From an uncultured Nitrospiraceae bacterium (GTDB taxonomy: Bacteria; Nitrospirota; 9FT-COMBO-42-15; HDB-SIOI813), in the NCBI GenBank assembly GCA_964611625.1, contig CAZTAM010000003.1:311960-375959 (forward strand): DNA of 64,000 nucleotides, in the 5' to 3' direction. Below are positions 3,562-63,216 of this stretch, piece by piece. The position numbers were made by a program, and so were the translations under genes. The notes beneath the pieces were generated by a model. It made no database searches. It saw only the letters and a program-made list of their open reading frames with translations, and was not told the origin of the DNA. The first letter of the stretch is position 1. Every line of letters starts with the position of its first letter.

Positions 3562-4533
3562 CTAACCCCCCTCTATGTTAATCCTGTCTCTCACGCTGTA
3601 AATGGGCTTACCCTGAGACTCATAATATGTCCTCACCTGTATCTCAGCAAGTATACCCATGCTGAACAACTGAAGACCTGCCAATATCAGTAATGTCCCA
3701 AAGAGCAGTAATGGCCTGTTGGAAAGGCTTGCACCGTAAAATATCTTCTGAAACGCAAGATATCCGTCAATTACTGTACCTGTTATCAGTAATATAATAC
3801 CAGACCACCCGAATATGTGGAGAGGTCTTTCAAGGAAGAATTTCAGAAAAATAACGGATATGAGATCAATAAGCACACGGAAGGCGCGAGACAGGGTATA
3901 CTTGCTCTTTCCATACAGCCTCGGGTGGTGAGTGACTGTCATCTCTGTAATACTTGCCCCATAAATACTCGCCAGTGCCGGGATAAAACGATGCAGCCCG
4001 CCATACAGCGGTATGTTCTTGATGACCTCTGCCCGGTAAGCCTTGAGAGAACAACCGTAGTCGTGTAATCTAACCCCGGTTGTTCTGCCAATTATCCAGT
4101 TCGCAATTACGGACGGAATCCTTCTGGAGAACAGCCGGTCTTTCCTATCCTTCCTCCAGCCGTTTACAACATCATATCCTTCCTCCAGTTTAGATATTAA
4201 TGCCGGTATATCCGACGGGTCATTCTGCATGTCGCCGTCCATGGCTACAATTATCTCACCCCTTGCAAAGTCAAATCCAGCAGACATCGCCGCCGACTGT
4301 CCGAAATTACGCCTCAGCCTGACAGTCCTGATATACTCATATTGAGAACAAATCTTCTTTAGTATTGAAAAGGTCTCATCTGTACTGCAGTCATCAACGT
4401 AAATTATCTCAAAAATAATCCCCATCTTGTGCAGGACTGCCAGAAGGGCTGCGTTCATCCCTGGAATATTCTCTGCCTCGTTATAAACAGGGATAACAAC
4501 AGAAATATACGTTTTGTCTTTATCAGTATCCAT
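3562..4533 (-). CDS. GT2 polyprenyl-phosphate glycosyltransferase (ArnC/DPM1/GtrB-like)
   Basis: VVIPVYNE...YVDDCSTDET...DGDMQNDP motifs of GT-A family 2, plus two C-terminal TM helices as in ArnC/GtrB. Confidence 0.75.
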   Translation of the reverse strand: MDTDKDKTYISVVIPVYNEAENIPGMNAALLAVLHKMGIIFEIIYVDDCSTDETFSILKKICSQYEYIRTVRLRRNFGQSAAMSAGFDFARGEIIVAMDGDMQNDPSDIPALISKLEEGYDVVNGWRKDRKDRLFSRRIPSVIANWIIGRTTGVRLHDYGCSLKAYRAEVIKNIPLYGGLHRFIPALASIYGASITEMTVTHHPRLYGKSKYTLSRAFRVLIDLISVIFLKFFLERPLHIFGWSGIILLITGTVIDGYLAFQKIFYGASLSNRPLLLFGTLLILAGLQLFSMGILAEIQVRTYYESQGKPIYSVRDRINIEGG

Positions 4534-21601: not shown

Positions 21602-24600
21602 TTATTCAGACCCCCTTTTCCGGCTGAACATACCTCGCAATGATAACGTCTGAGACTGGTAATAGAGCACCGGCACAACCACCAGTGTCAGCAGTGTGGC
21701 TGCAGCCAGGCCGAATATGACTGCTACCGCCATTGGCCCCCACCACTGAGCTGATTCGCCTCCGATTTCCAGGGATAAATTTCGGAAGTCGAAACTCACC
21801 CCGACTGCCATGGGAAGAAGGCCCAGGATTGTTGTCACTGCCGTGAGCATGACCGGGCGAAAGCGCACGAGACCAGCATGAATGAGCGCCTCACGCAGTT
21901 CCATTCCCTTATTTCTTAACTGATTGATATAGTCAATGAGTACGATGGCATTGTTTACGACCACACCTGCCAGGGATATGACTCCGATGCCGGTCATGAT
22001 AATGCCGAAAGGTGTTGCGGTAACCAGCAGGCCCATGAAAACTCCGGTTAGCGACAGGATAACGGATGTCATGACTATCAGCATTTGTAGAACTGAATTG
22101 AACTGGGTAAGGAGGACAAGTGCTATTAGAAAGACCGCAACGATGAAGGCCTTCCCAAGAAAAGCAGATGCCTTCTGCTGCTCTTCCTGTTCGCCGGAGA
22201 AATTGATCTTATAACCGGCGGGCAGCTCGATTCCTGACAACCGGGTCTGTACATCTTTCAATACCTCGTTGCTGTTTCGGCCGAAAGTGTTGGCGGAGAT
22301 GGTCACCACCCTATTCTGATCAATGTGGCGGATGGCTCCGAAACCAGTCTCCATCTCTATCCTGGCAACTGTGGAGAGTGGAACGGGGGCTCCTGTCCTC
22401 GTCGGAATAAGGAGGCTGCCGATATCACTAAGGCTCTGCCGTCGGGGTTCAGGCAGGCGGGCAATGATGTCATATTCGTCCTTGCCTTCTCGGTAAACTC
22501 CAAGCTTGCTTCCGCTGATTGCAGCCTTGACTGTGCTGGAAATCTCCGCGGTGGAGAGCCCCAGCAGGGTTGCTTTATTCCGGTCAACCAGCACCCTTAT
22601 CTCAGGTTTGGCCTTTGAGAAATCGTCCTTGAGATCAACCAGTCCCGGAACATCTTTTACCAGGGATTTGGACTTCTCTACCAGCGACTCAAGAGTTTCG
22701 ACCACTTCTCCGCTGATCTCTATGTTTACGGGCGGACCTGTGGGTGGACCCGTCTCTTCTTTTTCCACCTTGATCTCTGCCCCGGCCATGGAGGCAACCG
22801 CCTCCCGTATGCGTCCCAGCACGATATTGGAATTCTCTCTGCGCTTCTCCCGCTCGACAAAGTCGAGGGAAATTTTACTAAAATTAGACTGAGCACCGGC
22901 ACTGCTGCCGGCTTCGCCACTCGCGCCAACTCCGACCTCAGCAATAATGAATTTAAGATCCTTTTCCGGACTGGCAGCCTTCTCCACAATCATAGCCAAC
23001 TGGTTGGATGTCTCCAGGTTAGCCCCTTCCGGTGCCTTGATTTCGACGAATGCCCTGTTAGGCTCCGTATCCGGGAAGAGCTCTACCCCATGACCCAACA
23101 GACTGTATCCGGCAATGATAAGAAGCAGCAATGTAAGCGCCCCGCCGACTACCAGTCCCCGATGATCAAGGGATTTCCCCAGAATCCAGCGATACATACC
23201 TAATATGCGCATTTGCTCATCAACGCCGCCTGTGCTGCTGCGGCTGACACGCATAAATGAAGCACAGAGTACCGGGTTGATGACCAGGGCTACCAGCAGT
23301 GATGCCGTCAGAACTATGATAAGGGTCATGGGAAGATATTTCATGAACTCGCCCATCACCCCAGGCCAGAACAACATGGGACCGAATGCGCACAGAGTGG
23401 TCAGTGTCGAGGATATAACCGGCCAGCCGACCTCGCTTACCGCCCTGCGTGCAGCGCTGATCCGGTCATCACCTTCCTGCATGTGCCGGTATATGTTCTC
23501 AACGATTACGATGGCGTTGTCTACCAGCATCCCAAGTGCCAGGATCAGGCTGAACAATACTACCATGTTTAGGGTGATTCCCATCGCCTGAATGACGGCA
23601 AAGGACAGGAGCATGGAAAATGGGATCGCCGATGCGACAAATATGGCGCTGTTCAATCCCAGAAAAAAGAAGAGTACCGCAACCACAAGAATCAGGCCGG
23701 TTAGGATGTTATTCTCCAGATCAGAGACCATGGTCCGGATGTCCCTGGATTGGTTCAGCGTTACGGACAGCTCGACCCCCGCCGGAACCTGCTTCCGGGC
23801 CTCTTCAAGCAGCGCAAATACATGGTCGGCGACTGCGATGATGTTCTCGCCAGTCCGCTTCTTCACCGCAAGTGTCACGCTGCTTCTACCGTTGAGCCTG
23901 GCATGGCTTGTGCGGTCTTCAAAAGTGTCGCGGACCACTGCAACATCCTTGAGGTAGATCGGGCGGCCGTCACGGCTTGCCACCATCAGGGTGTCCACCT
24001 CGTCCGGGCTGGTGAACTCCCCGGGTATGCGGAGGAGGTATTCTCCCCGCCCTATATCGAGGCTGCCGCCTGGGATGTTGACATTTTCGCGTTGAACGGA
24101 CTGAAGTATCTCGGCAAAAGAGAGTCTGTAGGCGAACATTCTGTCAGGGTTGAATTCCACCCTGATTTCCCTCTCCCGTCCACCCGCAAGATTCACCTCC
24201 AGAACGCCTGGAATCGCTTCAATCCTGTCCTCCAGTTCTTCCGCCACACGTTTGAGAACCGTTTCCTCAACATCACCGGAAACAGCAAGCATCAGAATCG
24301 GAAACTCCGAAAGGTTGACCTCGAAGATAACAGGATCGTTTTCCAGATCTTCGGGGAGATCCCCTTTGGCCTGATCAACTTTGTCGCGCACCCACTGTAT
24401 GGCGTTGTCGATGTCTACCCTGGGAGTAAATTCAATAGTAATCACTGAGGAACCCTCGGCACTGACTGATCTGATTTCTTCCACGTCCCTGAGGCCCTTT
24501 AGCTTGCGTTCTATTGGCAGGGTAATGAGGGTTTCAATGTCCGATGGCGCAGCCCCCTCATAGGAGGTGACCACCATAACATACGGTATTGTGATGTCAG

Positions 24601-24712
24601 GGGACGATTCACGCGGAAGTGTAATGTAGCTGTATGCCCCAATTACAATAAAAAAAACCATCAGGGCGAAGATTGTGCTGCGATGGCCAATGGCTGCATC
24701 AGATATCAGCAT
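21602..24712 (-). CDS. RND efflux transporter permease (AcrB/CzcA superfamily)
   Basis: About 1040 aa, 12-TM RND architecture; track start is TTG at 24733, internal ATG at 24712 gives an AcrB-like N-terminus. Confidence 0.85.
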   Translation of the reverse strand: MLISDAAIGHRSTIFALMVFFIVIGAYSYITLPRESSPDITIPYVMVVTSYEGAAPSDIETLITLPIERKLKGLRDVEEIRSVSAEGSSVITIEFTPRVDIDNAIQWVRDKVDQAKGDLPEDLENDPVIFEVNLSEFPILMLAVSGDVEETVLKRVAEELEDRIEAIPGVLEVNLAGGREREIRVEFNPDRMFAYRLSFAEILQSVQRENVNIPGGSLDIGRGEYLLRIPGEFTSPDEVDTLMVASRDGRPIYLKDVAVVRDTFEDRTSHARLNGRSSVTLAVKKRTGENIIAVADHVFALLEEARKQVPAGVELSVTLNQSRDIRTMVSDLENNILTGLILVVAVLFFFLGLNSAIFVASAIPFSMLLSFAVIQAMGITLNMVVLFSLILALGMLVDNAIVIVENIYRHMQEGDDRISAARRAVSEVGWPVISSTLTTLCAFGPMLFWPGVMGEFMKYLPMTLIIVLTASLLVALVINPVLCASFMRVSRSSTGGVDEQMRILGMYRWILGKSLDHRGLVVGGALTLLLLIIAGYSLLGHGVELFPDTEPNRAFVEIKAPEGANLETSNQLAMIVEKAASPEKDLKFIIAEVGVGASGEAGSSAGAQSNFSKISLDFVEREKRRENSNIVLGRIREAVASMAGAEIKVEKEETGPPTGPPVNIEISGEVVETLESLVEKSKSLVKDVPGLVDLKDDFSKAKPEIRVLVDRNKATLLGLSTAEISSTVKAAISGSKLGVYREGKDEYDIIARLPEPRRQSLSDIGSLLIPTRTGAPVPLSTVARIEMETGFGAIRHIDQNRVVTISANTFGRNSNEVLKDVQTRLSGIELPAGYKINFSGEQEEQQKASAFLGKAFIVAVFLIALVLLTQFNSVLQMLIVMTSVILSLTGVFMGLLVTATPFGIIMTGIGVISLAGVVVNNAIVLIDYINQLRNKGMELREALIHAGLVRFRPVMLTAVTTILGLLPMAVGVSFDFRNLSLEIGGESAQWWGPMAVAVIFGLAAATLLTLVVVPVLYYQSQTLSLRGMFSRKRGSE

Positions 24713-25796
24713 TTCCGGTTCCCTCTTCAGCAACTGCGGACCCGTCGCTAACCAGGTGCTGACCTTTTACAATGAGCCGCTCACCAGGTGTGAGCCCTTC
24801 TTCTATCACTGCCATATTGCCGATAATAGGCCCGACTTTTACTTGACGAAGATGTGCTGTGCCGCCCTGTTCGACATAGACGACTTTGATCCCATCGCGT
24901 TCCACCAGGGAATAAAGTGGGACTGCGATTACCTGAGAGAGCTTACGGCTCAGGAAAGCGACACGAATGATCATCCCAGGGCGCAGTGATCCCGCCTTGT
25001 TGTCGACAGCGATCTTGGCCTGGTAAGTCCTGGTTGCCGGATCTGCCTGGTAGGATAGATGGATGATCTCACCTGCGAATCCCTGACCTGCCCCTCCTTC
25101 TACCGGAGCGGCAAAGACCCGGGCTTTTTCTCCAACAGTCAGTTTCATTATGTCCTTCTCAGGTACATCTACCAGTGCCCGCAGCCGGTTGACCTGCATA
25201 ACAACCGCTGCGGCGTTCCCTTCGGCAATATACTCGCCCCGGTCTATCAACAGGCGATCGAGAATACCGTCCACAGGGCTGCGAATTGTGCTTTTGTCAA
25301 GGGCTACCCTTGAAAGCCTCAACTGGGCCTGAGCCTGTTCAAATGCCTTAGTGGAATCTTCGAATTCCTGCTGGCTGATAAGATTGCTCTGAACAAGGGA
25401 GAGGCGGCGTTCCATGCGCTTTTTCTGCAGTTCGTACTCGACCTCATCACGTGCCAACTCCGCTTCAAGTCTTTCCGGATCGATGCGCAGGATGGTATCT
25501 CCCTTTTTCACCCTGTCTCCTTCTTTGGGGCCAATCCATTTCACAGGACCGGACATTTCAGCTGCCAGGGTCAGATCCTCCCAGGCTTCCAGAGTTCCGG
25601 GGAGAGTCAGGTTCACCGAGAGATTTTGCTTTACGACAGTGCTGAGGGAAACGTTGGTGACCTTTATCCGATGCGGATCTGGCAATACTACTTTGGTTTC
25701 ATCACTGCCGGAATTATCGCATCCGCTGAAAAGAAGTACCACCAGAAGAAGCGGAAGGCAGGCAGGGTGATTCAGGAGAATATTCTTTAGCTTCAT
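24699..25796 (-). CDS. RND efflux periplasmic adaptor (membrane fusion protein), lipoprotein
   Basis: Lipobox LLFSGC; HlyD-like lipoyl and beta-barrel regions; ATG at 25796. Confidence 0.8.
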   Translation of the reverse strand: MKLKNILLNHPACLPLLLVVLLFSGCDNSGSDETKVVLPDPHRIKVTNVSLSTVVKQNLSVNLTLPGTLEAWEDLTLAAEMSGPVKWIGPKEGDRVKKGDTILRIDPERLEAELARDEVEYELQKKRMERRLSLVQSNLISQQEFEDSTKAFEQAQAQLRLSRVALDKSTIRSPVDGILDRLLIDRGEYIAEGNAAAVVMQVNRLRALVDVPEKDIMKLTVGEKARVFAAPVEGGAGQGFAGEIIHLSYQADPATRTYQAKIAVDNKAGSLRPGMIIRVAFLSRKLSQVIAVPLYSLVERDGIKVVYVEQGGTAHLRQVKVGPIIGNMAVIEEGLTPGERLIVKGQHLVSDGSAVAEEGTGNADI

Positions 25797-25862
25797 CACT
25801 GGTCTCCGGATTTTGACATTTATACTCCACGTAAGTAATTAAAGTTGCCTGCAAGAAAAACC

Positions 25863-48764: not shown

Positions 48765-48998
48765 TTATACAGATAAATGGCTTTCGGGCTTTGACTCCGT
48801 AACAGGTATTGATATTAAGTAATCCCCTTCGTTTTTATTAATCCGAAGATCACCCTTTGCCACAAGCCTTTCAACTGCCAGGAAAATCACATTATATGAG
48901 GCATCGATAGCATATTCAAGGTTTGATAGCGTAATACTTCCCCGCTGTTTAACAAGTGAATCTATTCTCGAGGCAGTCAAATCAATCAGGTCATACAT
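48765..48998 (-). CDS. Small hypothetical protein (77 aa), possible winged-helix fold
   Basis: ATG preceded by SD GGGAGG; no recognisable catalytic motif. Confidence 0.35.
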   Translation of the reverse strand: MYDLIDLTASRIDSLVKQRGSITLSNLEYAIDASYNVIFLAVERLVAKGDLRINKNEGDYLISIPVTESKPESHLSV

Positions 48999-49199
48999 TT
49001 ATTGCCTCCCTTGCATCACACATAAGTTAATTACCTAACTGAGATATTATATATATAGGATAACTACAAGATCAGCAATCATATTTATTATGATTATATT
49101 GTCATTGTTTTCATGATATGTTGTAAACATATTTTGACATCAGTTGGAATGGAGATTACCTTTGACGATAAATACCGGTCTCTGTTATGATTGAGTTCG

Positions 49200-49406
49200 C
49201 TATTTAAGCATTGTATATAAAGTATATCCAATAGCAAGCAAACCGGCGGGCAGATTTATCATCCTTGTGGTCTGAGTCGGACGCGGCGTAAAAAATGTGT
49301 CGAGCCTGAAGGTTTCAGTAACCCTGTTGCTTTTAAAGGCAGCAAGGATCAGGACTATGCCGTATAATATGGTTACTATGTTAAGTGTACTGTTTAAGGC
49401 GCCCAT
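49200..49406 (-). CDS. Small hypothetical membrane protein (68 aa)
   Basis: One or two hydrophobic helices; SD GGAGGA upstream of ATG. Confidence 0.3.
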   Translation of the reverse strand: MGALNSTLNIVTILYGIVLILAAFKSNRVTETFRLDTFFTPRPTQTTRMINLPAGLLAIGYTLYTMLK

Positions 49407-49501
49407 TAATCCTCCATGTATTTTTGCATAGCCAATATAACAGAAACATGTTTAAAATTAAAGGGGCACCTGAATCCATTATTAGTATATGAGGAGGATG
49501 A

Positions 49502-50470
49502 TTGGATAATAGCGTAGTCATAGGTATAGATTTGGGAGGATCAGCCGTACGTCTTTCAACTGTAACCAGTAATGGAAGGCTTCGATACTCTAAGAGGGTG
49601 GACATATCTGAACGACGTGAGAAAGATTATGTCATTTCCTCAATCATAACTAATATTAAGGAGCTTAAAGCAATTGAAAATGGCAGTCGCAACGAGGTCA
49701 TTGCCATAGGCATTGGCTCTCCCGGTATCATTGATATAAAGAGAGGTATAGTCTTGACGTCACCCAATTTTAAGGACTGGAAAAAAGTAAGGTTAAAAAC
49801 TATTATAGAGAATGAATTCAATCTGCCGGTCATACTTGATAATGATGCTAATGCCGCCGCATATGGCGAAAAATGGAAAGGGGTTGGACGCAAGGTGGAT
49901 AGTATGGTCTGCCTTACCATGGGTACAGGAATAGGTGGAGGCATTATTCTTAACAGGGAAGTCTGGCATGGCAGTGACGGAATGGCAGGTGAAATAGGCC
50001 ACATGACTGTAAATCCTGTCGGACCGCTATGTAATTGCGGAAATACCGGCTGTCTGGAGGTATACTCTTCTGCTACGGGTATGGTACGGAGTGCAATCAG
50101 CCACCTCAAATCCGGAAGGAAGTCAAGCCTTAAGAGGCTTTCTTCAGGAGACAGCAGTGGCATAACGGCAATAATGATCTATGATGCGGCATTAAGAGGA
50201 GACAGGCTTTCAATTGAGATCCTGGCAGAAGCAGGCACATATCTCGGAATAGCCATTGCCAGCCTGATTAATATCCTGAATCCGGAGATGATTGTCCTGG
50301 CCGGGGCTGTGTCCGGTGCATCGGATTTATTTATGCCAGCAGCAAGACAGGAAATCAATAAACGGGCGTTCTCCGTCCTTGTCGAGAGGACAAAAATAGT
50401 ACGAGGCAAGCTGATTGACTCTGCAGGCATAGTGGGAGCAGCAGGGCTGGCGTTAAAGCACTATGAATAA
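49502..50470 (+). CDS. ROK-family sugar kinase (glucokinase-like)
   Basis: IGIDLGGS ATP motif, zinc motif CNCGNTGC, no N-terminal HTH; TTG start after SD GAGGAGG. Confidence 0.8.
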   Translation: MDNSVVIGIDLGGSAVRLSTVTSNGRLRYSKRVDISERREKDYVISSIITNIKELKAIENGSRNEVIAIGIGSPGIIDIKRGIVLTSPNFKDWKKVRLKTIIENEFNLPVILDNDANAAAYGEKWKGVGRKVDSMVCLTMGTGIGGGIILNREVWHGSDGMAGEIGHMTVNPVGPLCNCGNTGCLEVYSSATGMVRSAISHLKSGRKSSLKRLSSGDSSGITAIMIYDAALRGDRLSIEILAEAGTYLGIAIASLINILNPEMIVLAGAVSGASDLFMPAARQEINKRAFSVLVERTKIVRGKLIDSAGIVGAAGLALKHYE

Positions 50471-51251
50471 GTATATCTCGCTTTTCCACATAAACTGGCA
50501 AAACTCACTTCAATACCGGTTTGCACTTGTCGTCTATATAGGCGGCTACTCCATCTACATCGGCGTTCTCCTGTACCTTTGGTCCGCCATATACAGTGAG
50601 GGCCAGACCGTAGGAAACTATACATTATCCCAGCTTGTAACTTATTATATCCTTCAGCTGATGATCAACTCGATCATCTTCTCTTATGTAAGCTGGGATG
50701 TCATAGATAACATAAAGACCGGAAATTTTTCAAACTTTCTGACAAAACCGCTTGATTACTATATGTACTGGTTTACTATAAACATATCAGGCAAGATGCT
50801 GGAAGCTGTGTTCATCATTATCACAGCAGGCATTGTATCCTTTTTTGTAAGCGATTATATATCCTTTCCTCAACACATCAGCACCATCATATATTTCATC
50901 ATCGCAATAATACTGGGGTTGATACTTGCCTTTGAAATGGATTTCTGTATAGGCATGATCACCTTCTGGCTGACTCAGGTCAGGACATTTAAATACATGC
51001 TCCAGACCATGATACTGTTTTTTGCGGGGGCTATGCTTCCACTTGATCTGTTCCCGCCGCTCCTTACAAAGGTGGCAGGGTTGCTCCCATTCAGATATCT
51101 CGTATACTTCCCTATCAGCATATACCTGGGAAAGGTTGAAGATCCTCTCCCTTCTTTCGCTATACTGGCAGTCTGGATCATACTATTCCTGGTCCTCTCC
51201 AGGATACTCCTGTTAAGGGGTATAAAGCGATATGAGGCAGTTGGTGCGTAA
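50463..51251 (+). CDS. ABC-2 family transporter permease
   Basis: 262 aa, 6 TM helices; start overlaps ROK stop. Confidence 0.6.
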   Translation: MNKYISLFHINWQNSLQYRFALVVYIGGYSIYIGVLLYLWSAIYSEGQTVGNYTLSQLVTYYILQLMINSIIFSYVSWDVIDNIKTGNFSNFLTKPLDYYMYWFTINISGKMLEAVFIIITAGIVSFFVSDYISFPQHISTIIYFIIAIILGLILAFEMDFCIGMITFWLTQVRTFKYMLQTMILFFAGAMLPLDLFPPLLTKVAGLLPFRYLVYFPISIYLGKVEDPLPSFAILAVWIILFLVLSRILLLRGIKRYEAVGA

Positions 51252-52052
51252 ATGATCAGGTTATTTACCCGTTACATGAGGCTCTATAAGGCATTCTTCT
51301 ACCAGTGCCTGAAGGAAGACATGATTTACAGGTCGAACTTCCTGACTCTGGTAATAATGGATATAGGATTTGTCTGCGTTAGCATTATCCTGTTTAAGGT
51401 CATATACGGACATGTCAATACTATAGCCGGATGGACATTTAATCAGTCTGTAATTCTGATCGGTACCGTTGGTATTGTCAGAGAGATGGCATACCTGACA
51501 TTCAGGCGCGGCTTCCTGGAACTTGGAAACCACATAAGAACAGGCACATTCGATATGTTTATGGTAAGACCGATAGCATCCGGAATCCATCTCGGCATGA
51601 GGCATCTCTCCATATCAGAAAGCCTTGGTGAAGGTATGATGGGCATTGCCCTTGTCATCTACGGATTCAGCCATCTTGACAACTGGACCTGGATAGCCTT
51701 CCCTCTGTACATATTATTTCTGATAAACTCTCTTATGATATATTACGGATTCAGCCTCATTATAAACAGTATAGTATTCTGGGTGGTAAAATCACAGGAG
51801 TTGAATACAGTGGTATATTTTTTCATGGAGACATCCCGCTATCCCGGTGATATATACAGGGGTATAGGAAAGGTGATATTCACAATTATCATACCGATAG
51901 GAATCATCGCTACTGTGCCGGCATCGGTATTAACCGGACGATTAGGATTTAATTTCGCCATCTTTTCGCTTTTAATCGGGATATCATTCCTGGGAGCTGG
52001 TCTGTTAGTGTGGAAGATGAGCATTGAACATTATTCGTCTGCCAGTGGGTAA
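51252..52052 (+). CDS. ABC-2 family transporter permease
   Basis: 266 aa, 6 TM helices; starts directly after the previous stop. Confidence 0.6.
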   Translation: MIRLFTRYMRLYKAFFYQCLKEDMIYRSNFLTLVIMDIGFVCVSIILFKVIYGHVNTIAGWTFNQSVILIGTVGIVREMAYLTFRRGFLELGNHIRTGTFDMFMVRPIASGIHLGMRHLSISESLGEGMMGIALVIYGFSHLDNWTWIAFPLYILFLINSLMIYYGFSLIINSIVFWVVKSQELNTVVYFFMETSRYPGDIYRGIGKVIFTIIIPIGIIATVPASVLTGRLGFNFAIFSLLIGISFLGAGLLVWKMSIEHYSSASG

Positions 52053-52053
52053 T

Positions 52054-53028
52054 ATGCCGAATTCAATACGTGTCAAAGAGCTCCGTAAGTCCTACGACTA
52101 TTTCAAGAAAGAGCCCGGTCTAGCCGGTTCCCTGAAGAGTCTGTTCTGGAGGGAAAAACTGTATAATGAGGCTTTAAAGGGGATATCTTTTGAAATCTCG
52201 GAAGGCGAGCTTGTCGGCTTTTTAGGTCCTAATGGCGCCGGCAAGACAACCACTCTCAAGATACTTTCCGGTATACTATACCCTACCGGTGGCGAGGCAT
52301 CAGTTCTCGGTCATATCCCATGGAAAAGGGAACCGGCTTATCAGAAGCAATTCTCCATCGTCATGGGTCAGAAGAACCAGCTCTGGTGGGACCTCCCTGC
52401 ACAGGAATCGTTCACGCTGAACAGGGAAATTTACGAGGTTGACGGTTCGACTTACAGCCGTAATCTGTCGGAACTTACGGAGTTATTTGACATCAAAGAC
52501 CTGCTGGATGTCCCTGTAAGAAAACTATCAATGGGCCAGAGGATGAAGTGCGAGCTTGTTGCAGCGCTCCTCCACTCCCCTAAAGTCCTCTTTCTTGATG
52601 AGCCTTCCATAGGGCTTGATATAATCTCCCAGGACAAGATCATCACATATATTGAAGAGTATAACAGGCTTAAGAAAACAACAGTCCTTCTGACGAGCCA
52701 TTACATGCGGGATGTAGAGAGACTTTGCAAAAGGGTGATTGTAATCAATCATGGAACTATCATATATGACGGATCTGTTAAAGACCTTATGACCACCTAT
52801 GCGGATCATAAGATAATAAGACTGCGCTTCTCCTCGGAGTTTGCAGAAAATGGCCTCGAAAAATATGGCGAAGTTCTGGAGAGAGACAGGCTCAATGCAG
52901 TGTTAAAAACAGAACGGAATACTATAGCACTGGCCACTTCAAGGATTCTCAACGACCTGCCTGTTGATGACCTGTCTGTAGAGGATGTCGAAATAGAAGA
53001 TGTTATAAAGAAGATTTTTGCAGGATAG
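52054..53028 (+). CDS. ABC transporter ATP-binding protein
   Basis: Walker A GPNGAGKTT, signature LSMGQ, Walker B LFLDEP; ATG at 52054 (track TTG 52024 overlaps permease). Confidence 0.85.
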   Translation: MPNSIRVKELRKSYDYFKKEPGLAGSLKSLFWREKLYNEALKGISFEISEGELVGFLGPNGAGKTTTLKILSGILYPTGGEASVLGHIPWKREPAYQKQFSIVMGQKNQLWWDLPAQESFTLNREIYEVDGSTYSRNLSELTELFDIKDLLDVPVRKLSMGQRMKCELVAALLHSPKVLFLDEPSIGLDIISQDKIITYIEEYNRLKKTTVLLTSHYMRDVERLCKRVIVINHGTIIYDGSVKDLMTTYADHKIIRLRFSSEFAENGLEKYGEVLERDRLNAVLKTERNTIALATSRILNDLPVDDLSVEDVEIEDVIKKIFAG

Positions 53029-53047: not shown

Positions 53048-54253
53048 CTAAAGTCTCAGATTTTCCATACAATTCTGACTCATTCCTTCAGCATAGAATC
53101 TGTAGCATGACTTGCCGTCAGACTTGGCCCTGTACATTGCAAAATCTGCCTTTCTGAGGAGTTTCGCCCCATCATCCCCGTCTGTAGGATAGATGCTGAT
53201 ACCTATACTCATCGTGACACTTACTTCCTGTTCACCCAATTTAACGGGTGATTCAAAGATCGAATATATCCGATTGCAAATTATAATTATGTCATCCATC
53301 TGTTCGATGTCGGGGAGGAGAACTATAAACTCATCACCTCCAAGCCGGCCAACTGTATCGCTTAATCTTACGCATTTCTTCAGCCTTTCTGCAACCTCCC
53401 TGAGCAAATCGTCACCTGCAGAATGACCAAGAGTATCGTTAATCAATTTAAAGCGGTCAAGGTCAATAAATAATATTGCTACATAAATTGCCCTTCTGCC
53501 AACCAGCGTGATTGCCTGATTAAGATAATTCATCAGGAGACGTCTGTTGGGAAGACCTGTCAGATTATCATAATTTGCCATCTGGATAATCTTCTCTTCT
53601 GACTCCTTACGTTCAGTAATATCTTCAATAACAAGAAGGACCTGACTCTCCGGATCTTCAGACTCAGATGGTTTTATCATACTGATATTAACCGTGAAGT
53701 ACCGGTTACCACCGGATGCATACTCAATCACGATATCCTGACACTTGTATCCGTTTATAAATGTGTTTTTTATTGCCTCCATCAAATCAGCAACTGGCAG
53801 GATATCTTTAATCCCCCTGCCTTCAGCATCCTCAGGTTTCATAGAAAACATCCTGGTAAAGGCAGGATTTACTCTGAACACATTTAAATCACGCGTTACT
53901 ACTACAAGACCGGAATTAACACTATTTACTATATTGTCAGCATACGCCTTGACTGAAAGATTTTCTGCATAGGCAGTAGCTATTAATTCTTTTTCGCGGG
54001 CACGCTGCGTTAGTAAAGCCTCCTCATGCTGTTTTTTTGCTATGACCTTAATGACACAAAAATAGAGGAACGGTGCGCTCAGAATCGAAAGAAGGGCAGA
54101 ATCAAGAATAAACTCCATAACCCCGGCTGGCATATCAATTAGCCATAGCATGGACATAACAAGGAACTCTGCAACAAACATGATGCAAAGGATCCTGATG
54201 AACATACTGTAGCCTCTGATAATGCTGTGTGATGAATTATTTTTTGTATCCAT
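53048..54253 (-). CDS. Membrane-anchored PAS-GGDEF diguanylate cyclase
   Basis: Two N-terminal TM helices, PAS-like region, GGDEF active site RLGGDEF with I-site RLSD. Confidence 0.75.
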   Translation of the reverse strand: MDTKNNSSHSIIRGYSMFIRILCIMFVAEFLVMSMLWLIDMPAGVMEFILDSALLSILSAPFLYFCVIKVIAKKQHEEALLTQRAREKELIATAYAENLSVKAYADNIVNSVNSGLVVVTRDLNVFRVNPAFTRMFSMKPEDAEGRGIKDILPVADLMEAIKNTFINGYKCQDIVIEYASGGNRYFTVNISMIKPSESEDPESQVLLVIEDITERKESEEKIIQMANYDNLTGLPNRRLLMNYLNQAITLVGRRAIYVAILFIDLDRFKLINDTLGHSAGDDLLREVAERLKKCVRLSDTVGRLGGDEFIVLLPDIEQMDDIIIICNRIYSIFESPVKLGEQEVSVTMSIGISIYPTDGDDGAKLLRKADFAMYRAKSDGKSCYRFYAEGMSQNCMENLRL

Positions 54254-56990: not shown

Positions 56991-57150
56991 ATTACTGCCA
57001 GATAGTCTCTACCGCAGACTTCAGTTCTACCTAAACTCCATTGTTAGTCCGCATGATTTATCATTCACTCATATTCATAAACCAAATATCCTTTGCACTA
57101 TCATCTTAGAAATGTTATTATTTTTCGCTTATCGAAAGGTTTTTAATATT

Positions 57151-59427
57151 ATGATCTGCCGGCTTATTTCTTTCTTTATATTTCTGTTATTGTGCACTGG
57201 AATATATTTCCCATTATCCACTATCTGTCACGCAGAGGGTGAATCCCATATAATACAGATTGAAGTAAGCGGAAACAGACGCATAGAGACATCAACTATT
57301 CTTTCAAAAATCAGGTTGAAGACCGGTGATATTTATTCAGCAGCTTCAGTTCGGGAAGATATAAAAGGCCTGTACGAAACAGATTACTTCGAAGATATAA
57401 GGGTGGAGACCGGGACATCAGAAGACGGCGTTATATTAATCTATAAGGTTAAAGAACGGCCAATCCTGAGGGATGTGGCATATGACGGCAATGACAAGAT
57501 AGCTGCTGACAGGCTGAAGGAGAAGGTGACCTTCATTACCGGCGTTACTGTAAGCCAGAAACAGGTAAAAGAAAATGTTGAGAGACTGCGGGAGCTTTAC
57601 AGGGAAGACGGCTATTATGAGGCAACAATAATACCAGTCGTAACCAGGACATCGGAGGATGCTGTCTCCGTTACTTTCTTTATCAAAGAGGGCAGAAAAA
57701 TAAAAATTAAAGATGTGGTTGTTACCGGTACATCAGAAATATCCGAATCAAGCCTCATAAAGGTCATAGGTACAAAGCGCTACAAGCTGCTGACTTCATG
57801 GATAACAGGGGCAGGCATCTACAAGGAAGTTGAAGCCCAGAATGATGTTGACAGGATACGTGACTACTATCTGGACCGCGGCTATGTACAGGTGCAGGTA
57901 AGCGGTCCTGACATTGAAATATTGGAAGGCGGGTTATGGATGAGACTCACCTTCCATGTAACTGAGGGAGAACAATACAGCATCAGGGGGATTGATTTCA
58001 AAGGTAATGACATATTTACAAGGGATAAAATTGAAGAAAGGATCAAACTTCGCAAGGGATTGATCTTCAGCAGAAAGACCTTGCGTGAAGATATTGGATT
58101 GATAACTGATATGTATGGTGAAAAGGGGTACGCATTTGCAAATGTATTCCCTGATATAAGGCCGGATGATCACTCCAGGACCATTGATATAATATTCAAC
58201 ATTGAAAAAGGAGAAAAGGTAAAGGTAAGGAAGATTAATATCAGCGGTAATGAAAAGACGCGGGACAAGGTAATTCGGAGGGAAGTAAGATTAAGCGAGC
58301 AGGACTATCTTAATACAACTGCCCTGAGAAGGAGTTTTCAGCGTATAAATAACCTGAATTTCTTTGAGAATGTAGAGATTGTCCCTGATACTGTCAGCAG
58401 GGATATGGTTGACCTTAATGTGAGGGTCAGGGAAAAACCTACGGGGGCATTCAGCATGGGAGGCGGTTACAGCTCAGTATATGGACTGGTAGGGATGCTG
58501 GATGTAACTGAGGGCAACCTCCTGGGCAGAGGTGAACTTCTTAAGGTAAAGGGTGAGTTTGGAAGACTCAGGACAAGCTATAATCTAACATTCAAAGAGC
58601 CCTGGTTTATGGATAAACCTACTTCAGTAACGGTAAATCTTTTCGATACCGTCAGGACATTCGATGCCTACGATGTAAACAGCAGCGGCGGTAATATCGG
58701 TGTCGGCAAGTCATACGGTGAATACTGGGGCGGCAGCATTACATATGGGATACAGAATATTACCGTCAGCGGTGAACCTCCATCCGGTGTTGATAAGGGT
58801 ACATCTACTACCGGTAGCTTAATGACGTCAGTGTCCAGGGATACGAGGGATAATTACTGGGATCCTCGTTCAGGTAACAGAAACAGCATCTCTTTAGAAT
58901 ATGCTGACAGATTTCTGGGCGGTGACAATTTATTTGTGAAATATATACTTGATACAACATGGTATTACCCTTTGCCGCTCGACAGTGCTATCATGTTTCA
59001 TGGCAGATATGGAGAAGGAAGGGGATTCAATGGAGATCACCTCCCTGCAAATGAGAAATTCTATGTCGGCGGTATTTATACAGTAAGGGGCTTTGATTAC
59101 GGCAGGGCTACAACACCTTCAACAGTATCAGGCGATCCCGTGCACGGAGATCTTTTAGGTGCTGACAAGGAACTGATATTTAATATAGAATATGTTGTCC
59201 CTCTGGTTAAGGATGCCAGGATAAACGGGGTATTATTTTATGATGCCGGTTCAGGTTTCGGAAAAACTGACACCGTTGCATTGTCTGACCTCAGGACGAG
59301 TGCCGGGGGCGGTTTCAGGTGGTTCTCTCCTATCGGGCCGTTACGCCTTGAATGGGGATATAATCTTGATCCGAGACCAGGAGAGCGGCAGAGTATCTGG
59401 GAATTTTCCATTGGAACATTGTTTTAG
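57151..59427 (+). CDS. bamA: Outer membrane protein assembly factor BamA
   Basis: Signal peptide, POTRA repeats, C-terminal barrel ending with aromatic residue; ATG 57151 preferred over track start 57112. Confidence 0.9.
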   Translation: MICRLISFFIFLLLCTGIYFPLSTICHAEGESHIIQIEVSGNRRIETSTILSKIRLKTGDIYSAASVREDIKGLYETDYFEDIRVETGTSEDGVILIYKVKERPILRDVAYDGNDKIAADRLKEKVTFITGVTVSQKQVKENVERLRELYREDGYYEATIIPVVTRTSEDAVSVTFFIKEGRKIKIKDVVVTGTSEISESSLIKVIGTKRYKLLTSWITGAGIYKEVEAQNDVDRIRDYYLDRGYVQVQVSGPDIEILEGGLWMRLTFHVTEGEQYSIRGIDFKGNDIFTRDKIEERIKLRKGLIFSRKTLREDIGLITDMYGEKGYAFANVFPDIRPDDHSRTIDIIFNIEKGEKVKVRKINISGNEKTRDKVIRREVRLSEQDYLNTTALRRSFQRINNLNFFENVEIVPDTVSRDMVDLNVRVREKPTGAFSMGGGYSSVYGLVGMLDVTEGNLLGRGELLKVKGEFGRLRTSYNLTFKEPWFMDKPTSVTVNLFDTVRTFDAYDVNSSGGNIGVGKSYGEYWGGSITYGIQNITVSGEPPSGVDKGTSTTGSLMTSVSRDTRDNYWDPRSGNRNSISLEYADRFLGGDNLFVKYILDTTWYYPLPLDSAIMFHGRYGEGRGFNGDHLPANEKFYVGGIYTVRGFDYGRATTPSTVSGDPVHGDLLGADKELIFNIEYVVPLVKDARINGVLFYDAGSGFGKTDTVALSDLRTSAGGGFRWFSPIGPLRLEWGYNLDPRPGERQSIWEFSIGTLF

Positions 59428-59457
59428 CAGTATTAAAAACTGAAAGGAGAATATACA

Positions 59458-60015
59458 ATGAATCTCAGTAAGAAGGTGATGTACTCAATAATTACAGTTC
59501 TCTTCCTTGCCGTTTTTTCCGTTCTTCCCGCAGGAGCAGAGGAAGCCAGAATAGGCTTTATAGATGCCCAGAAGATACTTGATGAAAGCTTAAGGGGTAA
59601 ACTGGTTAAAGACCAGCTGAATGAATATGTACAGAGCAGACAGAAGATAGTTGATATTGAAGAATCAGAATTGAAAAATCTTCAGGATGAGTTGACCAAG
59701 CAGGGGGCTGTCCTGAGTCCTGCAGCGAAACAGGAGAAGGAAGATCTGTTCCAGCGAAAATTCATGGAATATCAAAAAAAGGTATCAGAATTACAAAAAG
59801 AGATTCAGCAGAGAAGGACTGAAAAGCTGGATGAGTTTAATACTGAATTGGAAAAGATTACAAAAAGCCTGGGTGAAAAAGAAGGATATTCCATGATCTT
59901 AACTAACCTTGACGTAAACATCATCATTTATGCAAAACCATCCCTTAACCTTACTGAAAGGATAATACAGGAACTTGATAAGGGACTTACAAAGGAAAAA
60001 GACGGAAAGAAGTAG
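59458..60015 (+). CDS. skp: Periplasmic chaperone Skp (OmpH family)
   Basis: Signal peptide, coiled-coil-rich 185 aa, conserved bamA-skp-lpxD position; SD AAAGGAGA. Confidence 0.8.
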   Translation: MNLSKKVMYSIITVLFLAVFSVLPAGAEEARIGFIDAQKILDESLRGKLVKDQLNEYVQSRQKIVDIEESELKNLQDELTKQGAVLSPAAKQEKEDLFQRKFMEYQKKVSELQKEIQQRRTEKLDEFNTELEKITKSLGEKEGYSMILTNLDVNIIIYAKPSLNLTERIIQELDKGLTKEKDGKK

Positions 60016-60094
60016 ATTATAATATGATTCAGGATGAGAGGAAGTGGGTTGCGGGAAAATTGTATGGCATGACACAGGGAGACTCTATTTTAGG

Positions 60095-61132
60095 GTGAAG
60101 CGGAAACGAGAAATAAAGCTTGGAGATATTGCAAAAGCTATATGCGGCGAACTGATAAACGGGTCTGATGATACGCTGATATCAAATGCAGCAGGCCTTA
60201 AAGATGCCCGGCAGGGAGAAATCAGTTTCATTTCGCATCGCAGATTTCTTAAAGACATTGATAAGACTTCTGCTTCTGCATTAGTTATCCCGAAGGACAT
60301 GGTATTTGACAAACTGCCTGCCATTAAAGTTGACAACCCGTACTTTGCATTCTCACAGCTATTACACTTGTTCCATGACCAGCCCTACTCTGCCAGAGGA
60401 ATTGACAGCAGTGCATCTGTTGGAAGCAACGTGGAGCTGGGAGCGGATATATCAATCTACCCTTATGTTTATATCGGGAATAATGCAGTAATAGGGGACA
60501 ATGTCACCATATATCCTTTCACATTCATAGGTGAGGGCTCTGTTATAGGAAGTAATTCTGTCATATATTCAAATGTCACGGTACGGGAAATGTGCAGAAT
60601 AGGCGCCCGTGTTATCATACATAGCGGAGCTGTCATTGGCAGTGATGGTTTTGGTTATGTGACTCATCAGGGAACTCACCATAAAATACCTCAGATTGGA
60701 GGCGTCGTTATTGGCGATGACGTTGAGGTTGGCGCCAATACTACAATCGACAGGGCAACAACAGGGAACACAATCATCGGAAGGGGCACAAAGATAGATA
60801 ATCTTGTACAGGTAGCCCACAATGTTTCCATAGGAGAGCACTGCCTGTTTGCGGCTCAGTCAGGAATAGCAGGAAGTTCAACAACAGGCAATTACGTAGT
60901 AATGGCAGGTCAGTCAGGGGTGTCAGACCACATCAATATAGGAAATAATGTTATCCTCACCGGCAAGTCCGGAGCGACAAGGGATATAAAAGACGGTGAG
61001 ACAGTCTCAGGCGTTACCTCCATGCCCCATCGCAGCTGGCTCAAGTCAATGGCTGTTTTTGAGGACCTGCCTGAAATGAAAAAAAGGATTGCAGAGCTTG
61101 AGAAAAGACTGGAAGAGATAGAAGCGAAATAA
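60095..61132 (+). CDS. lpxD: UDP-3-O-acylglucosamine N-acyltransferase
   Basis: Left-handed beta-helix hexapeptide repeats, C-terminal helix; GTG at 60095 gives an E. coli-like N-terminus (track GTG 60044). Confidence 0.9.
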
Positions 61133-61164
61133 TTGTTTTTTCGAAGACCCTAAGGAGGCATTAT

Positions 61165-61602
61165 ATGGACATAAAAGAAATACTCCGGATACTCCCCCAT
61201 CGATACCCTTTTCTGCTTATTGATAAGATCACAGAATTAGAATTATCCAGGCGTATAGTCGGGATAAAAAATGTAACAATGAATGAGGGATTCTTTCAGG
61301 GACACTTTCCTGATTTTCCTGTCATGCCCGGTGTGCTGGTTATTGAAGCAATGGCACAGGTAGGATGTGTCCTGGCATATAAATCAGCGGAAACAACAAT
61401 GGATATATCAAACAAGCTGGTATACTTTGCCGGGATAGATAATGCCAGGTTCCGTAAACCAATAGTGCCAGGCGATCAAATCAGATTTGAATTAGAACTG
61501 CTGAGGGCAAAGGGTACCTTCTGGAAAATGAAGGGTGCCGCGATTGTTGACGGAGAGACGGCTTGTGACGCCGAGATCATGGCGATGCTGGGTGATAAGT
61601 AA
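61165..61602 (+). CDS. fabZ: 3-hydroxyacyl-ACP dehydratase
   Basis: ILPHRYPFLLID and GHFP motifs; SD AAGGAGG. Confidence 0.95.
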   Translation: MDIKEILRILPHRYPFLLIDKITELELSRRIVGIKNVTMNEGFFQGHFPDFPVMPGVLVIEAMAQVGCVLAYKSAETTMDISNKLVYFAGIDNARFRKPIVPGDQIRFELELLRAKGTFWKMKGAAIVDGETACDAEIMAMLGDK

Positions 61603-61642
61603 AGACAGGCAATGAGCAAAAAAACTCTGAGGAGTGTAAATA

Positions 61643-62419
61643 ATGAATAGAATCCATGAAACCGCGATTGTTGACCCTAAGGCTGAGTTAGGCGAGGGAG
61701 TGACTGTCGGCCCCTACTCTGTCATAGGCGAACATGTGATAATTGGGGATGGAACAGTTATTGATTCACATGCATTAATTGAAGGATGGACTACGATTGG
61801 CAGTAAATGCAGGATTTCATCGTTTACATCCATAGGGACGCCTCCACAGGATATTTCATATGCTGGTGAAGAAACAAAAGTTGTTATAGGCGACAGAAAC
61901 ACAATACGCGAATACACAACTATCCACAGGGGGACTAAAAAAGGCGGCGGTATTACTACTGTAGGTTCTGATAATTATATAATGGCGTATGTTCATATAG
62001 CGCATGACTGCATCATTGGAAACCATATAGTGATGGCAAATGCGGCAACCCTGGGCGGCCATGTCAAGATAGACGACTACGCAATTATCGGAGGGCTTAC
62101 AGGCATACACCAGTTCGTCCGCATCGGCGCATATTCCATGGTGGGGGCATGCTCTGCAGTGTCTCTCGACGTGCCTCCATACGTATCTGCAGTCGGTAAC
62201 AGGGCTGAGCTCTTTGGTTTAAACATAGTAGGTCTGAGGAGACAGGGTTTTGACAAGGCTCGGGTGCAGAAAATAAAAAAGGCTTATAACATACTATTCA
62301 GATCGAAGCTGCAGCTTAAAGAGGCAGTAAAAAGCGTCATCAAAGAGGTGCCTGTATCAGAAGATATGGACCGTATGATTAAGTTCATTAAAGAAACCAA
62401 ACGTGGAATATGCAGATGA
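61643..62419 (+). CDS. lpxA: Acyl-ACP:UDP-GlcNAc O-acyltransferase
   Basis: Hexapeptide-repeat beta-helix and C-terminal helical domain typical of LpxA. Confidence 0.9.
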   Translation: MNRIHETAIVDPKAELGEGVTVGPYSVIGEHVIIGDGTVIDSHALIEGWTTIGSKCRISSFTSIGTPPQDISYAGEETKVVIGDRNTIREYTTIHRGTKKGGGITTVGSDNYIMAYVHIAHDCIIGNHIVMANAATLGGHVKIDDYAIIGGLTGIHQFVRIGAYSMVGACSAVSLDVPPYVSAVGNRAELFGLNIVGLRRQGFDKARVQKIKKAYNILFRSKLQLKEAVKSVIKEVPVSEDMDRMIKFIKETKRGICR

Positions 62420-63216
62420 AACTCGGTATTATAGCCGGTGATGGCAGGTTTCCTGTTATTATTGCAGATGCGGCAGGAAAAAACGGCTATGAGACGATTG
62501 TCGTTGCACATACAGGGCTCACGTCACCGGATATTGAAAATGCAGCTGACAAGGTTTACTGGACTAAATTAGGCCAGTTGTCGGCGTTAATTAACATATT
62601 AAAAAAAGAGGAAATTACAGAGGCTATTATGGCCGGAGGTGTAAGTAAGCGGCTCATGTTTACCAATATCATGCCTGATATCAAGGCACTGGCACTTCTG
62701 GCAAGGCTTAAGGACAGAAAAGATGACACAATCCTGAGGGCCATTGCCGGACAATTGGAGAAAGAGGGCATAACCATCAATGCAGCGACAGCATATATAA
62801 AGACTATTCTTGCTGAAAATGGGACTCTGACTAAAACAGGACCTGAGGCTGATGAGTGGGAGGATATCCGTTTCGGCACTGTTATAGCTAAGGAAATAGG
62901 GAGACTTGACATAGGGCAGTGCATAATAGTCAAAAACCGTGCAGTAATAGCAGTGGAGGCTGTTGAAGGAACTGATGAAACCATACTCAGGGGAGGAAGA
63001 CTTGCCAATGGAGGAGCCGTTGTAATAAAACTGTGCAAACCTGATCAGGACACACGGTTTGACCTCCCCACAGTCGGACCGGCAACAATTGCCCGAATGG
63101 CTGAGACAAAATCGAGGGTACTCGCAATTGAAGCAGGACTGACTGTCATGATAGACAAGGATCAGATGCTGAGGGCTGCAGATGAGGCCGGCATATCGGT
63201 TGTAGGAATAGGGTAA
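62410..63216 (+). CDS. lpxI: UDP-2,3-diacylglucosamine hydrolase LpxI (DUF1009 family)
   Basis: 268 aa, LGIIAGDGRFP N-terminus and position right after lpxA as in lpxA-lpxI-lpxB clusters. Confidence 0.65.
   Translation: MQMKLGIIAGDGRFPVIIADAAGKNGYETIVVAHTGLTSPDIENAADKVYWTKLGQLSALINILKKEEITEAIMAGGVSKRLMFTNIMPDIKALALLARLKDRKDDTILRAIAGQLEKEGITINAATAYIKTILAENGTLTKTGPEADEWEDIRFGTVIAKEIGRLDIGQCIIVKNRAVIAVEAVEGTDETILRGGRLANGGAVVIKLCKPDQDTRFDLPTVGPATIARMAETKSRVLAIEAGLTVMIDKDQMLRAADEAGISVVGIG

Follow-up and report, generated by a model that had tools for sequence, protein, structure and literature searches.

What a cytoplasmic sugar kinase has in common with an exporter is the question raised by a compact operon in the genome of an uncultured Nitrospiraceae bacterium. 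In the window, that is the whole stretch of 64,000 nucleotides that was analysed, four plus-strand genes at positions 49502-53028 encode a ROK kinase, two ABC-2 permeases and, at the end, an ATPase, and a first-pass annotation read their close junctions as a sign that kinase and pump share a dedicated sugar-derived substrate. The reading that we favour, with moderate confidence, is that an ordinary glucokinase and an exporter of the EVE/DUF990 family were joined in a lineage-specific operon, where they would be co-expressed while likely remaining independent in function.

The operon and its products

The gene content proposed in the annotation, with a ROK gene that lacks an HTH domain, two ABC-2 permease genes and the ATPase gene last, was borne out by the open reading frames and Pfam matches (Table 1), and its overlapping or abutting junctions were confirmed from the sequence. 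The ROK gene has a TTG start and a GAGGAGG Shine-Dalgarno motif at 49491-49497; ROK and permease 1 have 8 nt in common at their junction (ATGAATAA), permease 2 abuts permease 1 with 0 nt between them (TAAATG), and the ATG of the ATPase sits 1 nt past the permease 2 stop (TAAtATG). The ATPase frame is open from a TTG at 52024, where a start would yield a 29-nt overlap with permease 2; the ATG, which matches the start used by homologues, is most likely the true one. Overlapping junctions are common within operons and alone prove nothing, but the arrangement is beyond chance, the four-gene order having been found again in every clade relative read. Recent horizontal transfer of the block was rejected because its GC content matches the background.

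Table 1. Features of the kinase-exporter operon, in positions of the window
Feature	Position	Strand	Remarks
Candidate operon promoter, TAGCCA-18-TAAAAT	49429..49458	+	consensus scan, 9/12 matches, weak
ROK-family sugar kinase, glucokinase-like	49502..50470	+	322 aa; PF00480
ABC-2 permease 1 (PF06182/DUF990)	50463..51251	+	262 aa
ABC-2 permease 2 (PF06182/DUF990)	51252..52052	+	266 aa
ABC ATPase (DrrA/ABCA-like nucleotide-binding domain)	52054..53028	+	324 aa from ATG 52054

In a three-way alignment with the window, the -10 box of the candidate promoter and the surrounding CAATATAACAGAAACA...TAAAATTAAAG block are kept in two related loci (L001 and L002), and this region may serve as the operon promoter. 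An Rfam search upstream of ROK yielded no riboswitch or leader; a match to AdoCbl-II, located within a small ORF, was dismissed at 24.3 bits against a threshold of 36.5.

The kinase matches the ROK profile PF00480 over residues 6-319 of 322 (238.8 bits against a gathering cutoff of 22.9; 1.2e-70), which leaves no space for an N-terminal HTH, and the NagC and Mlc profiles align to it only from positions 81 and 112, respectively. Lacking the N-terminal winged-helix DNA-binding domain, it conforms to the kinases rather than the repressors. The ROK motifs are present (D10-LGG-S14, N114-D115, E164-x-G-H167 and C177/C179/C184-L-E186), with residue roles assigned as in PsNagK (PMC10031466), and 43 clade members show no variation at D10, N114, D115, E164, H167, C177, C179, C184 and E186. 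Its closest solved relatives are the glucokinases 2qm1 of Enterococcus faecalis (4e-63) and 3vgk, the GlkA of Streptomyces griseus (5e-50), and it falls just outside the ROK glucokinase family TIGR00744 (ROK_glcA_fam), with 250.7 bits against a curated cutoff of 260.35. With these glucokinases it shares the full-length fold without HTH, the DxGG(S/T) phosphate loop, the NDAN catalytic Asp, ExGH and the CxCGxxGCxE zinc site; it differs in that the linked clade has S14 and A15 where T and N are usual, and in heading a transporter operon with no sugar-catabolic context. When 43 linked were compared with 72 unlinked ROK proteins, the catalytic Asp, NDAN, ExGH, the Zn cysteines and the CLE glutamate proved to be the same, T14S, N15A and A189S being the sole clade-specific changes. 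As far as can be judged from the alignment, a signal of neofunctionalisation is absent from the catalytic, zinc-binding and sugar-binding residues, and the enzyme is predicted to be a glucokinase with glucose as its probable substrate.

Profile classification, which the annotation had suggested for the permeases, placed both in PF06182 (ABC2_membrane_6) with 97 bits (1.9e-27) and 145 bits (3.2e-42), respectively, against a cutoff of 22. They are 26% identical over just 70 aa, which marks them as old paralogues. The ATPase matches ABC_tran at 92.9 bits and its best NCBIfam match is drrA (211.6 bits, under the cutoff of 312); its nucleotide-binding domain is closest to 4yer and ABCA domains and is followed by a C-terminal extension of about 85 aa. 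A cognate ATPase of the DrrA/NatA/ABCA class is thus encoded in the same operon as the permeases. Searches of the PDB by profile and sequence gave no match for the permeases, whose transmembrane fold is that of type V exporters and most resembles those of Wzm, KpsM and TarG, which export glycopolymers, at a sequence identity of 11-12%.

Genes 2-4 are best read as a putative exporter of the EVE/DUF990 family (TCDB 3.A.1.141), to which the ethyl viologen exporter EvrABC of Synechocystis PCC 6803 belongs (PMC5417439). By description, both systems lack a binding protein and combine one ATPase with two different PF06182 permeases. In the present operon a kinase gene comes first and the order permease-permease-ATPase follows, whereas it is ATPase-permease-permease in Bacillus, Gloeothece, Bradyrhizobium, Chlorohelix and Gluconobacter. 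Transporters of this three-gene type also occur in Firmicutes, where COG3694/COG4587 operons with a NatA-like ATPase follow ppGpp riboswitches and have been tied to stress or starvation signalling (PMC6003355); those operons carry no kinase, whereas the present one belongs to another phylum and has no riboswitch. Wzm/Wzt, KpsMT and TarGH are PF01061 homodimers, in contrast to the two different PF06182 genes found here, and no glycan or teichoic-acid synthesis genes occur in the window flanks or linked loci, so that the pump falls outside these systems.

Sugar ABC importer genes are often adjacent to ROK kinase genes, and it might be supposed from this general pattern that the ABC-2 system takes up a sugar which the kinase then traps by phosphorylation. 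Such a role is extremely improbable given that neither the operon nor its neighbouring genes encode a substrate-binding protein at any linked locus, that PF06182 is not an importer family, and that both the permease fold and the ATPase class match type V exporters.

Extent of the linkage

The order ROK-permease-permease-ATPase was found in all eight related Nitrospirota loci read (L001-L004, L008, L064, L067 and L147, making nine linked loci with the window), their ROK proteins being 52-76% identical; L067 is one close relative obtained, among the matches listed, from a metagenome scan with a ROK alignment. The annotation had held that a ROK gene unlinked to the transporter in related genomes would speak against its claim, and in these close relatives, down to 52% identity, the linkage persists. 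All linked ROK proteins fall within one clade (P0001-P0045) of a neighbour-joining tree, and this clade is deep, taking in the GTDB class 9FT-COMBO-42-15 (L064; PMC11033732). Alignment scores of the four proteins give largely concordant rankings of the loci, the most divergent ones being nearly tied, as expected for inheritance as a block.

Moreover, the block is kept despite replaced flanks. It lies between toxin-antitoxin genes in L064 and has gap-pgk-tpi upstream in L002, while on the P0131 contig it is followed by PNPOx/HemN and preceded by a truncated gene that is presumed to be ROK; survival where the flanks differ suggests selection for staying together. The window flanks comprise glyQS, small ORFs, a GGDEF gene, a hydrolase, a tRNA and bamA-skp-lpxD. 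A tie to the downstream bamA-skp-lpxD cluster was unsupported, with the GGDEF gene, hydrolase and tRNA intervening in the window, and is also opposed by its absence from L064, L147 and the P0131 contig.

In six of the nine loci ROK and permease 1 overlap by 4-8 nt, and spacers of 152 nt in L064 and 275 nt in L008, the latter filled by a duplicated repeat element, indicate that translational coupling is not obligatory. That the pump is separable from ROK in these two loci, and that weak promoter-like matches were found within ROK by the consensus scan, would be compatible with an adjacency that has no operon meaning, the pump being expressed separately from its own promoter in or after the ROK gene. 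We consider this quite unlikely in view of the overlaps in the six loci, the terminator and promoter scan, in which the junctions showed no terminator-like site and nothing above background, and the strong Shine-Dalgarno motif that precedes ROK but none of the internal genes.

Outside the clade, no adjoining DUF990 pump was seen in five contexts read for ROK homologues at or below 50% identity. Sister ROK genes, at 47-50% identity, follow a PF01676 mutase-type enzyme in L005 and L006 and a GH57 glycogen enzyme in L066, and they form part of a Yip1-DUF2752-ROK-LepA-LepB arrangement in L007 and L148. The pairing is as unusual as the annotation had supposed: among the matches listed, none of 79 other metagenome ROK loci (51 of them with at least 1 kb of downstream sequence) has a DUF990 permease beside ROK, nor does a ROK gene adjoin the pump in any of 55 other DUF990 loci (26 Nitrospirota and 29 distant). 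Pump relatives were sought by a genome-contig scan with an alignment of 11 closer permease sequences. Orthologous permease-permease-ATPase units with variable neighbours are present in Nitrospiria, Nitrospira and Manganitrophaceae (permease 2 52-58% identical), with no ROK within up to 8 kb, including 18 loci of Nitrospiria/Manganitrophaceae with at least 2.7 kb of upstream sequence; in L065, whose pump is 63-65% identical, a minus-strand gene occupies the place of ROK. With neither partner so linked in the Nitrospirota lineages that come next, the pairing is, on the evidence of these gene neighbourhoods, one lineage-specific event. A literature search on ROK and ABC-2 genes in Nitrospirae found no papers.

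Shared expression or shared substrate

In the reading that we favour, the ancestor of one Nitrospirota clade would have acquired ROK once, by insertion before a pre-existing permease-permease-ATPase unit, and the four genes would then have been inherited as a block. A promoter shortly before ROK would drive transcription of all four, and the downstream cistrons would be read, in most members, by termination-reinitiation. The kinase would be a cytoplasmic zinc-containing hexokinase, most likely a glucokinase that converts free intracellular glucose, possibly derived from glycogen or maltodextrin turnover, to glucose-6-phosphate. Genes 2-4 would yield a type V (ABC-2) exporter in which two different six-helix permeases pair as a heterodimer, are driven by two ATPase copies and operate with no binding protein. 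Kinase and pump would have expression in common and probably different substrates. Telling against this reading are the retention of the block amid replaced flanks, the ROK/permease 1 overlap found in six of nine loci and the depth of the linked clade.

The sugar-derived substrate of the annotation would require that the sugar or pseudosugar phosphorylated by ROK is itself the expelled molecule or becomes part of it. Conservation of the block across about 50% ROK divergence and changing flanks is in its favour, as are the resemblance of the permease fold to glycopolymer exporters and the DUF990 trios that lie elsewhere amid glycosyltransferases and deazapurine or NRPS genes. A possible parallel is the acarbose cluster, which contains the ROK-like cyclitol kinase AcbM (PMC9200736) and the AcbWXY exporter, consisting of an ATPase and two permeases (PMC3364876), and which may be likened to the present operon in its subunit composition, with a ROK-type kinase and an ATPase/two-permease exporter in one cluster. 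However, biosynthetic genes number more than 20 in the acb cluster whereas the operon has none and no core biosynthetic genes in its flanks, and AcbM acts on a cyclitol whereas the sugar pocket here is unchanged from that of unlinked, glucokinase-like ROK proteins. Furthermore, biosynthetic, glycosyltransferase, nucleotidyltransferase and other sugar-derivatising genes are absent beside the operon from all linked loci, and pump orthologues of sister lineages occur without ROK. With a single lineage-specific origin and a non-obligatory coupling added to these points, we regard a substrate common to both partners as rather unlikely, and the annotation's claim of a dedicated one as neither supported nor excluded.

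Some ROK proteins, Mlc and Streptomyces GlkA among them, interact with sugar transporters, and the kinase could conceivably be a moonlighting glucokinase that senses sugar or ATP, binds the pump and adjusts its gating to the carbon status. What would favour such regulation is the tight ROK-permease 1 coupling together with conserved co-expression. Against it, ROK evolves faster than the other three proteins (relative alignment score 0.55-0.79 against 0.74-0.96 for the pump subunits), unlike an obligate subunit, and the spacers of 152-275 nt part it from the pump in two loci, making a regulatory role very unlikely.

A "phosphorylate-and-expel" module or kinase-gated pump for a glucose-like metabolite in this Nitrospirota clade is unlikely; if true, it would provide the first clue to a physiological substrate for the large DUF990/EVE family, for which an artificial herbicide is the only recorded substrate found, and would be a minimal relative of the logic by which aminocyclitol clusters combine kinase and exporter. 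A conserved partner gene is a rare functional hint for these widespread pumps, but here the hint is weak because the partner is confined to one lineage and resembles an ordinary glucokinase, and a gene adjacency of single origin is poor ground for reading function. The practical value of the locus lies in a clean operon that is open to testing. DUF990/EVE pumps were found in Nitrospirota, Firmicutes, cyanobacteria, actinobacteria, acetic-acid bacteria, Chloroflexota and one Nanohalarchaeota MAG, and elsewhere they have been recruited into clusters making glycosylated or other small molecules, an observation that runs counter to functional independence.

Kinase and transporter genes

The first-pass annotation had described four coupled genes, a ROK kinase without an HTH domain, two ABC-2 permeases and an ATPase placed last, and this arrangement was confirmed by the ORFs, their junctions and domain matches. 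The four successive ORFs of this uncultured Nitrospirota bacterium encode 322, 262, 266 and 334 aa. The first carries a full-length ROK domain (PF00480, 1.2e-70, residues 6–319). Among NCBIfam models it scores best with TIGR00744, the ROK glucokinase subfamily (250.7 bits, just under the 260.35 cutoff), and the closest solved structures are two glucokinases, 2qm1 (4e-63) and 3vgk (5e-50). Space for a DNA-binding domain is lacking, and the NagC and Mlc regulator models align no earlier than profile positions 81 and 112. A regulatory, moonlighting partnership with the pump is unlikely.

[quoted passage not shown] No solved structure was detectable by sequence for either permease. They share 26% identity over 70 residues only, which argues that they are old paralogues forming a predicted heterodimer. 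The ATPase is DrrA/ABCA-like and is extended at its C terminus by about 85 residues. Transporters of the same type (COG3694, COG4587 and a NatA-like ATPase), of unknown function, are riboswitch-linked in some Firmicutes, where ppGpp riboswitches precede them (PMC6003355).

The ROK stop and the permease 1 start share the 8-nt overlap ATGAATAA and the permease genes abut at TAAATG, both as read from the sequence, while ATG 52054 lies one base after the permease 2 stop. This ATG, rather than the upstream TTG 52024, is likely to be the ATPase start because of the alignment of homologue N-termini. A strong Shine-Dalgarno motif (GAGGAGG) occurs only at gene 1, 4 nt ahead of its TTG start, and inspection of the starts of genes 2–4 revealed none worth the name; this fits termination-reinitiation, by which we infer that the downstream genes are translated. 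Transcription of the pump independently of the ROK gene is unlikely.

Conservation of the four-gene block

The same gene order on one strand is present in every readable close relative (8 loci), and the ROK-pump linkage thus holds, in the neighbourhood comparison suggested earlier, down to 52% ROK identity. ROK identities to the window are 76% (L001), 74% (L008), 69% (L002), 65% (L067), 58% (L003/L004), 56–58% (L064) and 52% (L147). L064 belongs to GTDB class 9FT-COMBO-42-15 (PMC11033732), so the linked clade is not a shallow one. By alignment score, the four proteins rank the loci broadly alike, with near-ties among the most divergent, and relative scores indicate that the ROK evolves at roughly double the rate of the pump subunits.

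From ROK stop to permease 1 start the distance is −8 nt in the window, −4 nt in L001, L002, L003, L004 and L067, +20 nt in L147, +152 nt in L064 and +275 nt in L008; on the contig of a further relative (P0131) an incomplete gene, presumed ROK, overlaps permease 1 by 4 nt. In the L008 spacer a repeat element, about 150 nt long and rich in hairpins, occurs in duplicate: the copies are spaced 154 nt apart, and the 42-nt stretch found repeated is 81% identical between them. Together with several perfect or near-perfect hairpins, this points to an overlap broken by a REP/MITE-like insertion.

In the window, L001 and L003/L004 the operon is flanked by glyQS upstream and bamA-skp-lpxD downstream; L064 and L147 do not share this synteny. 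The bamA–lpxI cluster of the window begins about 4 kb beyond the operon. Upstream of the L002 operon lies gap-pgk-tpi-secG, L064 has toxin-antitoxin genes on both sides, and downstream are an alpha/beta hydrolase gene in L147 and PNPOx-HemN-DUF362 on the P0131 contig. The flanks change around a constant order, and the four genes therefore travel as a block.

Upstream in the window, 850 bp that carry two small, conserved ORFs on the minus strand separate the operon from glyQ-glyS. Both ORFs are kept in L001 and L002, where the substitutions follow a third-position pattern. An AdoCbl-II riboswitch candidate within the 77-aa ORF (24.3 bits, below the gathering score of 36.5; E 0.006) is probably a chance match. 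The convergent PAS-GGDEF gene is absent from L001 and L003. In the deepest-branching linked loci a Metal_resist gene (PF13801; CpxP/Spy/ZraP-like periplasmic protein), absent from the window, lies 20–25 nt upstream of the ROK gene on the same strand, and the operon of L003, L004 and L147 may comprise five genes with an envelope-stress flavour.

Features in the window and in compared loci
Feature	Locus	Coordinates	Strand	Remarks
PAP2-PMT/ArnT fusion gene	window	4533-6803	-	756 aa
RND pump and adaptor genes	window	21602-25799	-	AcrB-type (1043 aa), HlyD-type
ORF, 77 aa	window	48765-48998	-	no Pfam match; between glyQ and ROK
AdoCbl-II candidate	window	48770-48877	-	sub-threshold; probably chance
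TTGACG-18-TATGAT	window	49162-49191	+	conserved; between the small ORFs
ORF, 68 aa	window	49200-49406	-	resembles two hydrophobic helices; between glyQ and ROK
ROK-permease-permease-ATPase	window	49502-53028	+
PAS-GGDEF gene, 401 aa	window	53048-54253	-	convergent on ATPase; downstream boundary
bamA-skp-lpxD-(gap)-lpxA-lpxI	window	57112-63216	+	outer-membrane/lipid A cluster; LpxI PF06230/PF17930
PAS-GGDEF-EAL gene, 663 aa	L002	10636-12627	-	same position as PAS-GGDEF
Metal_resist gene	L003	6505-6975
Metal_resist gene	L004	6505-6975
Metal_resist gene	L147	4320-4781
ROK/permease 1 spacer, 275 nt	L008	1289-1563
DUF990 cluster	L150	1-9292		Bacillus mycoides plasmid NZ_CP071813.1

Limits of the pairing

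All linked ROKs group in a single clade (P0001–P0045) when 115 ROK homologues are placed in a neighbour-joining tree. ROKs outside it with 47–50% identity lie behind a PF01676 metalloenzyme (L005, L006), behind a GH57 enzyme (L066) or within Yip1-DUF2752-ROK-LepA-LepB (L007 and the Nitrospirota locus L148), and none of these five loci has a DUF990 permease. Nor has any of 79 further metagenome ROK loci (at most 46% identity) among the matches listed, 51 of them with at least 1 kb downstream.

Orthologous permease-permease-ATPase units occur, with varying neighbours, at 26 loci of Nitrospiria, Nitrospira and Manganitrophaceae (permease 2 52–58% identical); a ROK gene was found nowhere in these loci, 18 of which have at least 2.7 kb upstream. 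In L065, of an intermediate lineage (63–65% identical), a minus-strand gene other than ROK occupies the upstream position. ROK genes were likewise absent from 29 distant DUF990 loci (Gluconobacter, Nocardiopsis and other actinobacteria, Anaerolinea and a Nanohalarchaeota MAG) and from the four plasmid-borne trios inspected. One linked clade amid unpaired relatives of both partners argues that the pairing arose once and that neither partner needs it. The pairing noted as unusual is thus real and conserved in one lineage, and absent from the other ROK and DUF990 loci examined; kinase-first, ATPase-last is a lineage-specific architecture, for which a literature search on ROK plus ABC-2 in Nitrospirae yielded no description.

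Function of kinase and pump

Comparison of 43 linked-clade with 72 unlinked ROK sequences showed identity throughout at metal-binding D10, N114 and catalytic D115 of the NDAN motif, T142, E164 and H167 of ExGH, the zinc cysteines C177, C179 and C184, and the following E186; the roles of the equivalent residues are established for the ROK kinase NagK (PMC10031466). Only T14S, N15A and A189S are clade-specific. The phosphate-loop Thr-to-Ser change is conservative and does not suggest a new sugar, and the linked kinase does not look specialised. Judged by sequence, kinase and pump are each regular members of known families.

We consider it fairly probable that an ordinary glucokinase-like ROK and a pre-existing EVE/DUF990 exporter operon were joined once and have independent functions. 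A single insertion would have placed the ROK gene ahead of the exporter operon; since then kinase and pump would have been transcribed together and, for the most part, coupled in translation, remaining functionally independent despite shared expression.

A real functional link is rather improbable. In its favour, the block persists through flank turnover, and DUF990 trios elsewhere resemble export modules in clusters devoted to small molecules, glycosylated or other. On the Bacillus mycoides plasmid an ATPase-permease-permease trio is flanked by carbamoyltransferase, DUF5591, glycosyltransferase, methyltransferase and PIG-L deacetylase genes and, at its other end, by queC-queD-queE-folE; the locus resembles a cluster for biosynthesis of a 7-deazapurine glycoside, which the trio would export. 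A Gloeothece plasmid trio (L151) adjoins polysaccharide pyruvyl transferase, GT-A glycosyltransferase and sulfotransferase genes, and a Bradyrhizobium plasmid trio (L152) lies within an NRPS/MbtH/PPTase cluster. It seems that the trio is a portable export module. A parallel is offered by the acarbose cluster, where a ROK-like kinase, AcbM (PMC9200736), occurs together with an exporter of one ATPase and two permeases, AcbWXY (PMC3364876). Against such a link, no glycosyltransferase, sugar-nucleotide or polymer-synthesis gene lies beside the operon in any linked locus and the catalytic and sugar-pocket residues of the kinase are unchanged relative to unlinked ROKs, so that the dedicated sugar-derived substrate suggested by the first-pass annotation is possible only.

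Elsewhere in the window, the RND efflux system lies in a stretch whose GC content is 0.50–0.54, against about 0.43 in the rest, and was possibly acquired horizontally. The protein that joins a PAP2 phosphatase domain to a PMT/ArnT-type glycosyltransferase domain is a candidate for modifying lipid A or an envelope glycolipid.
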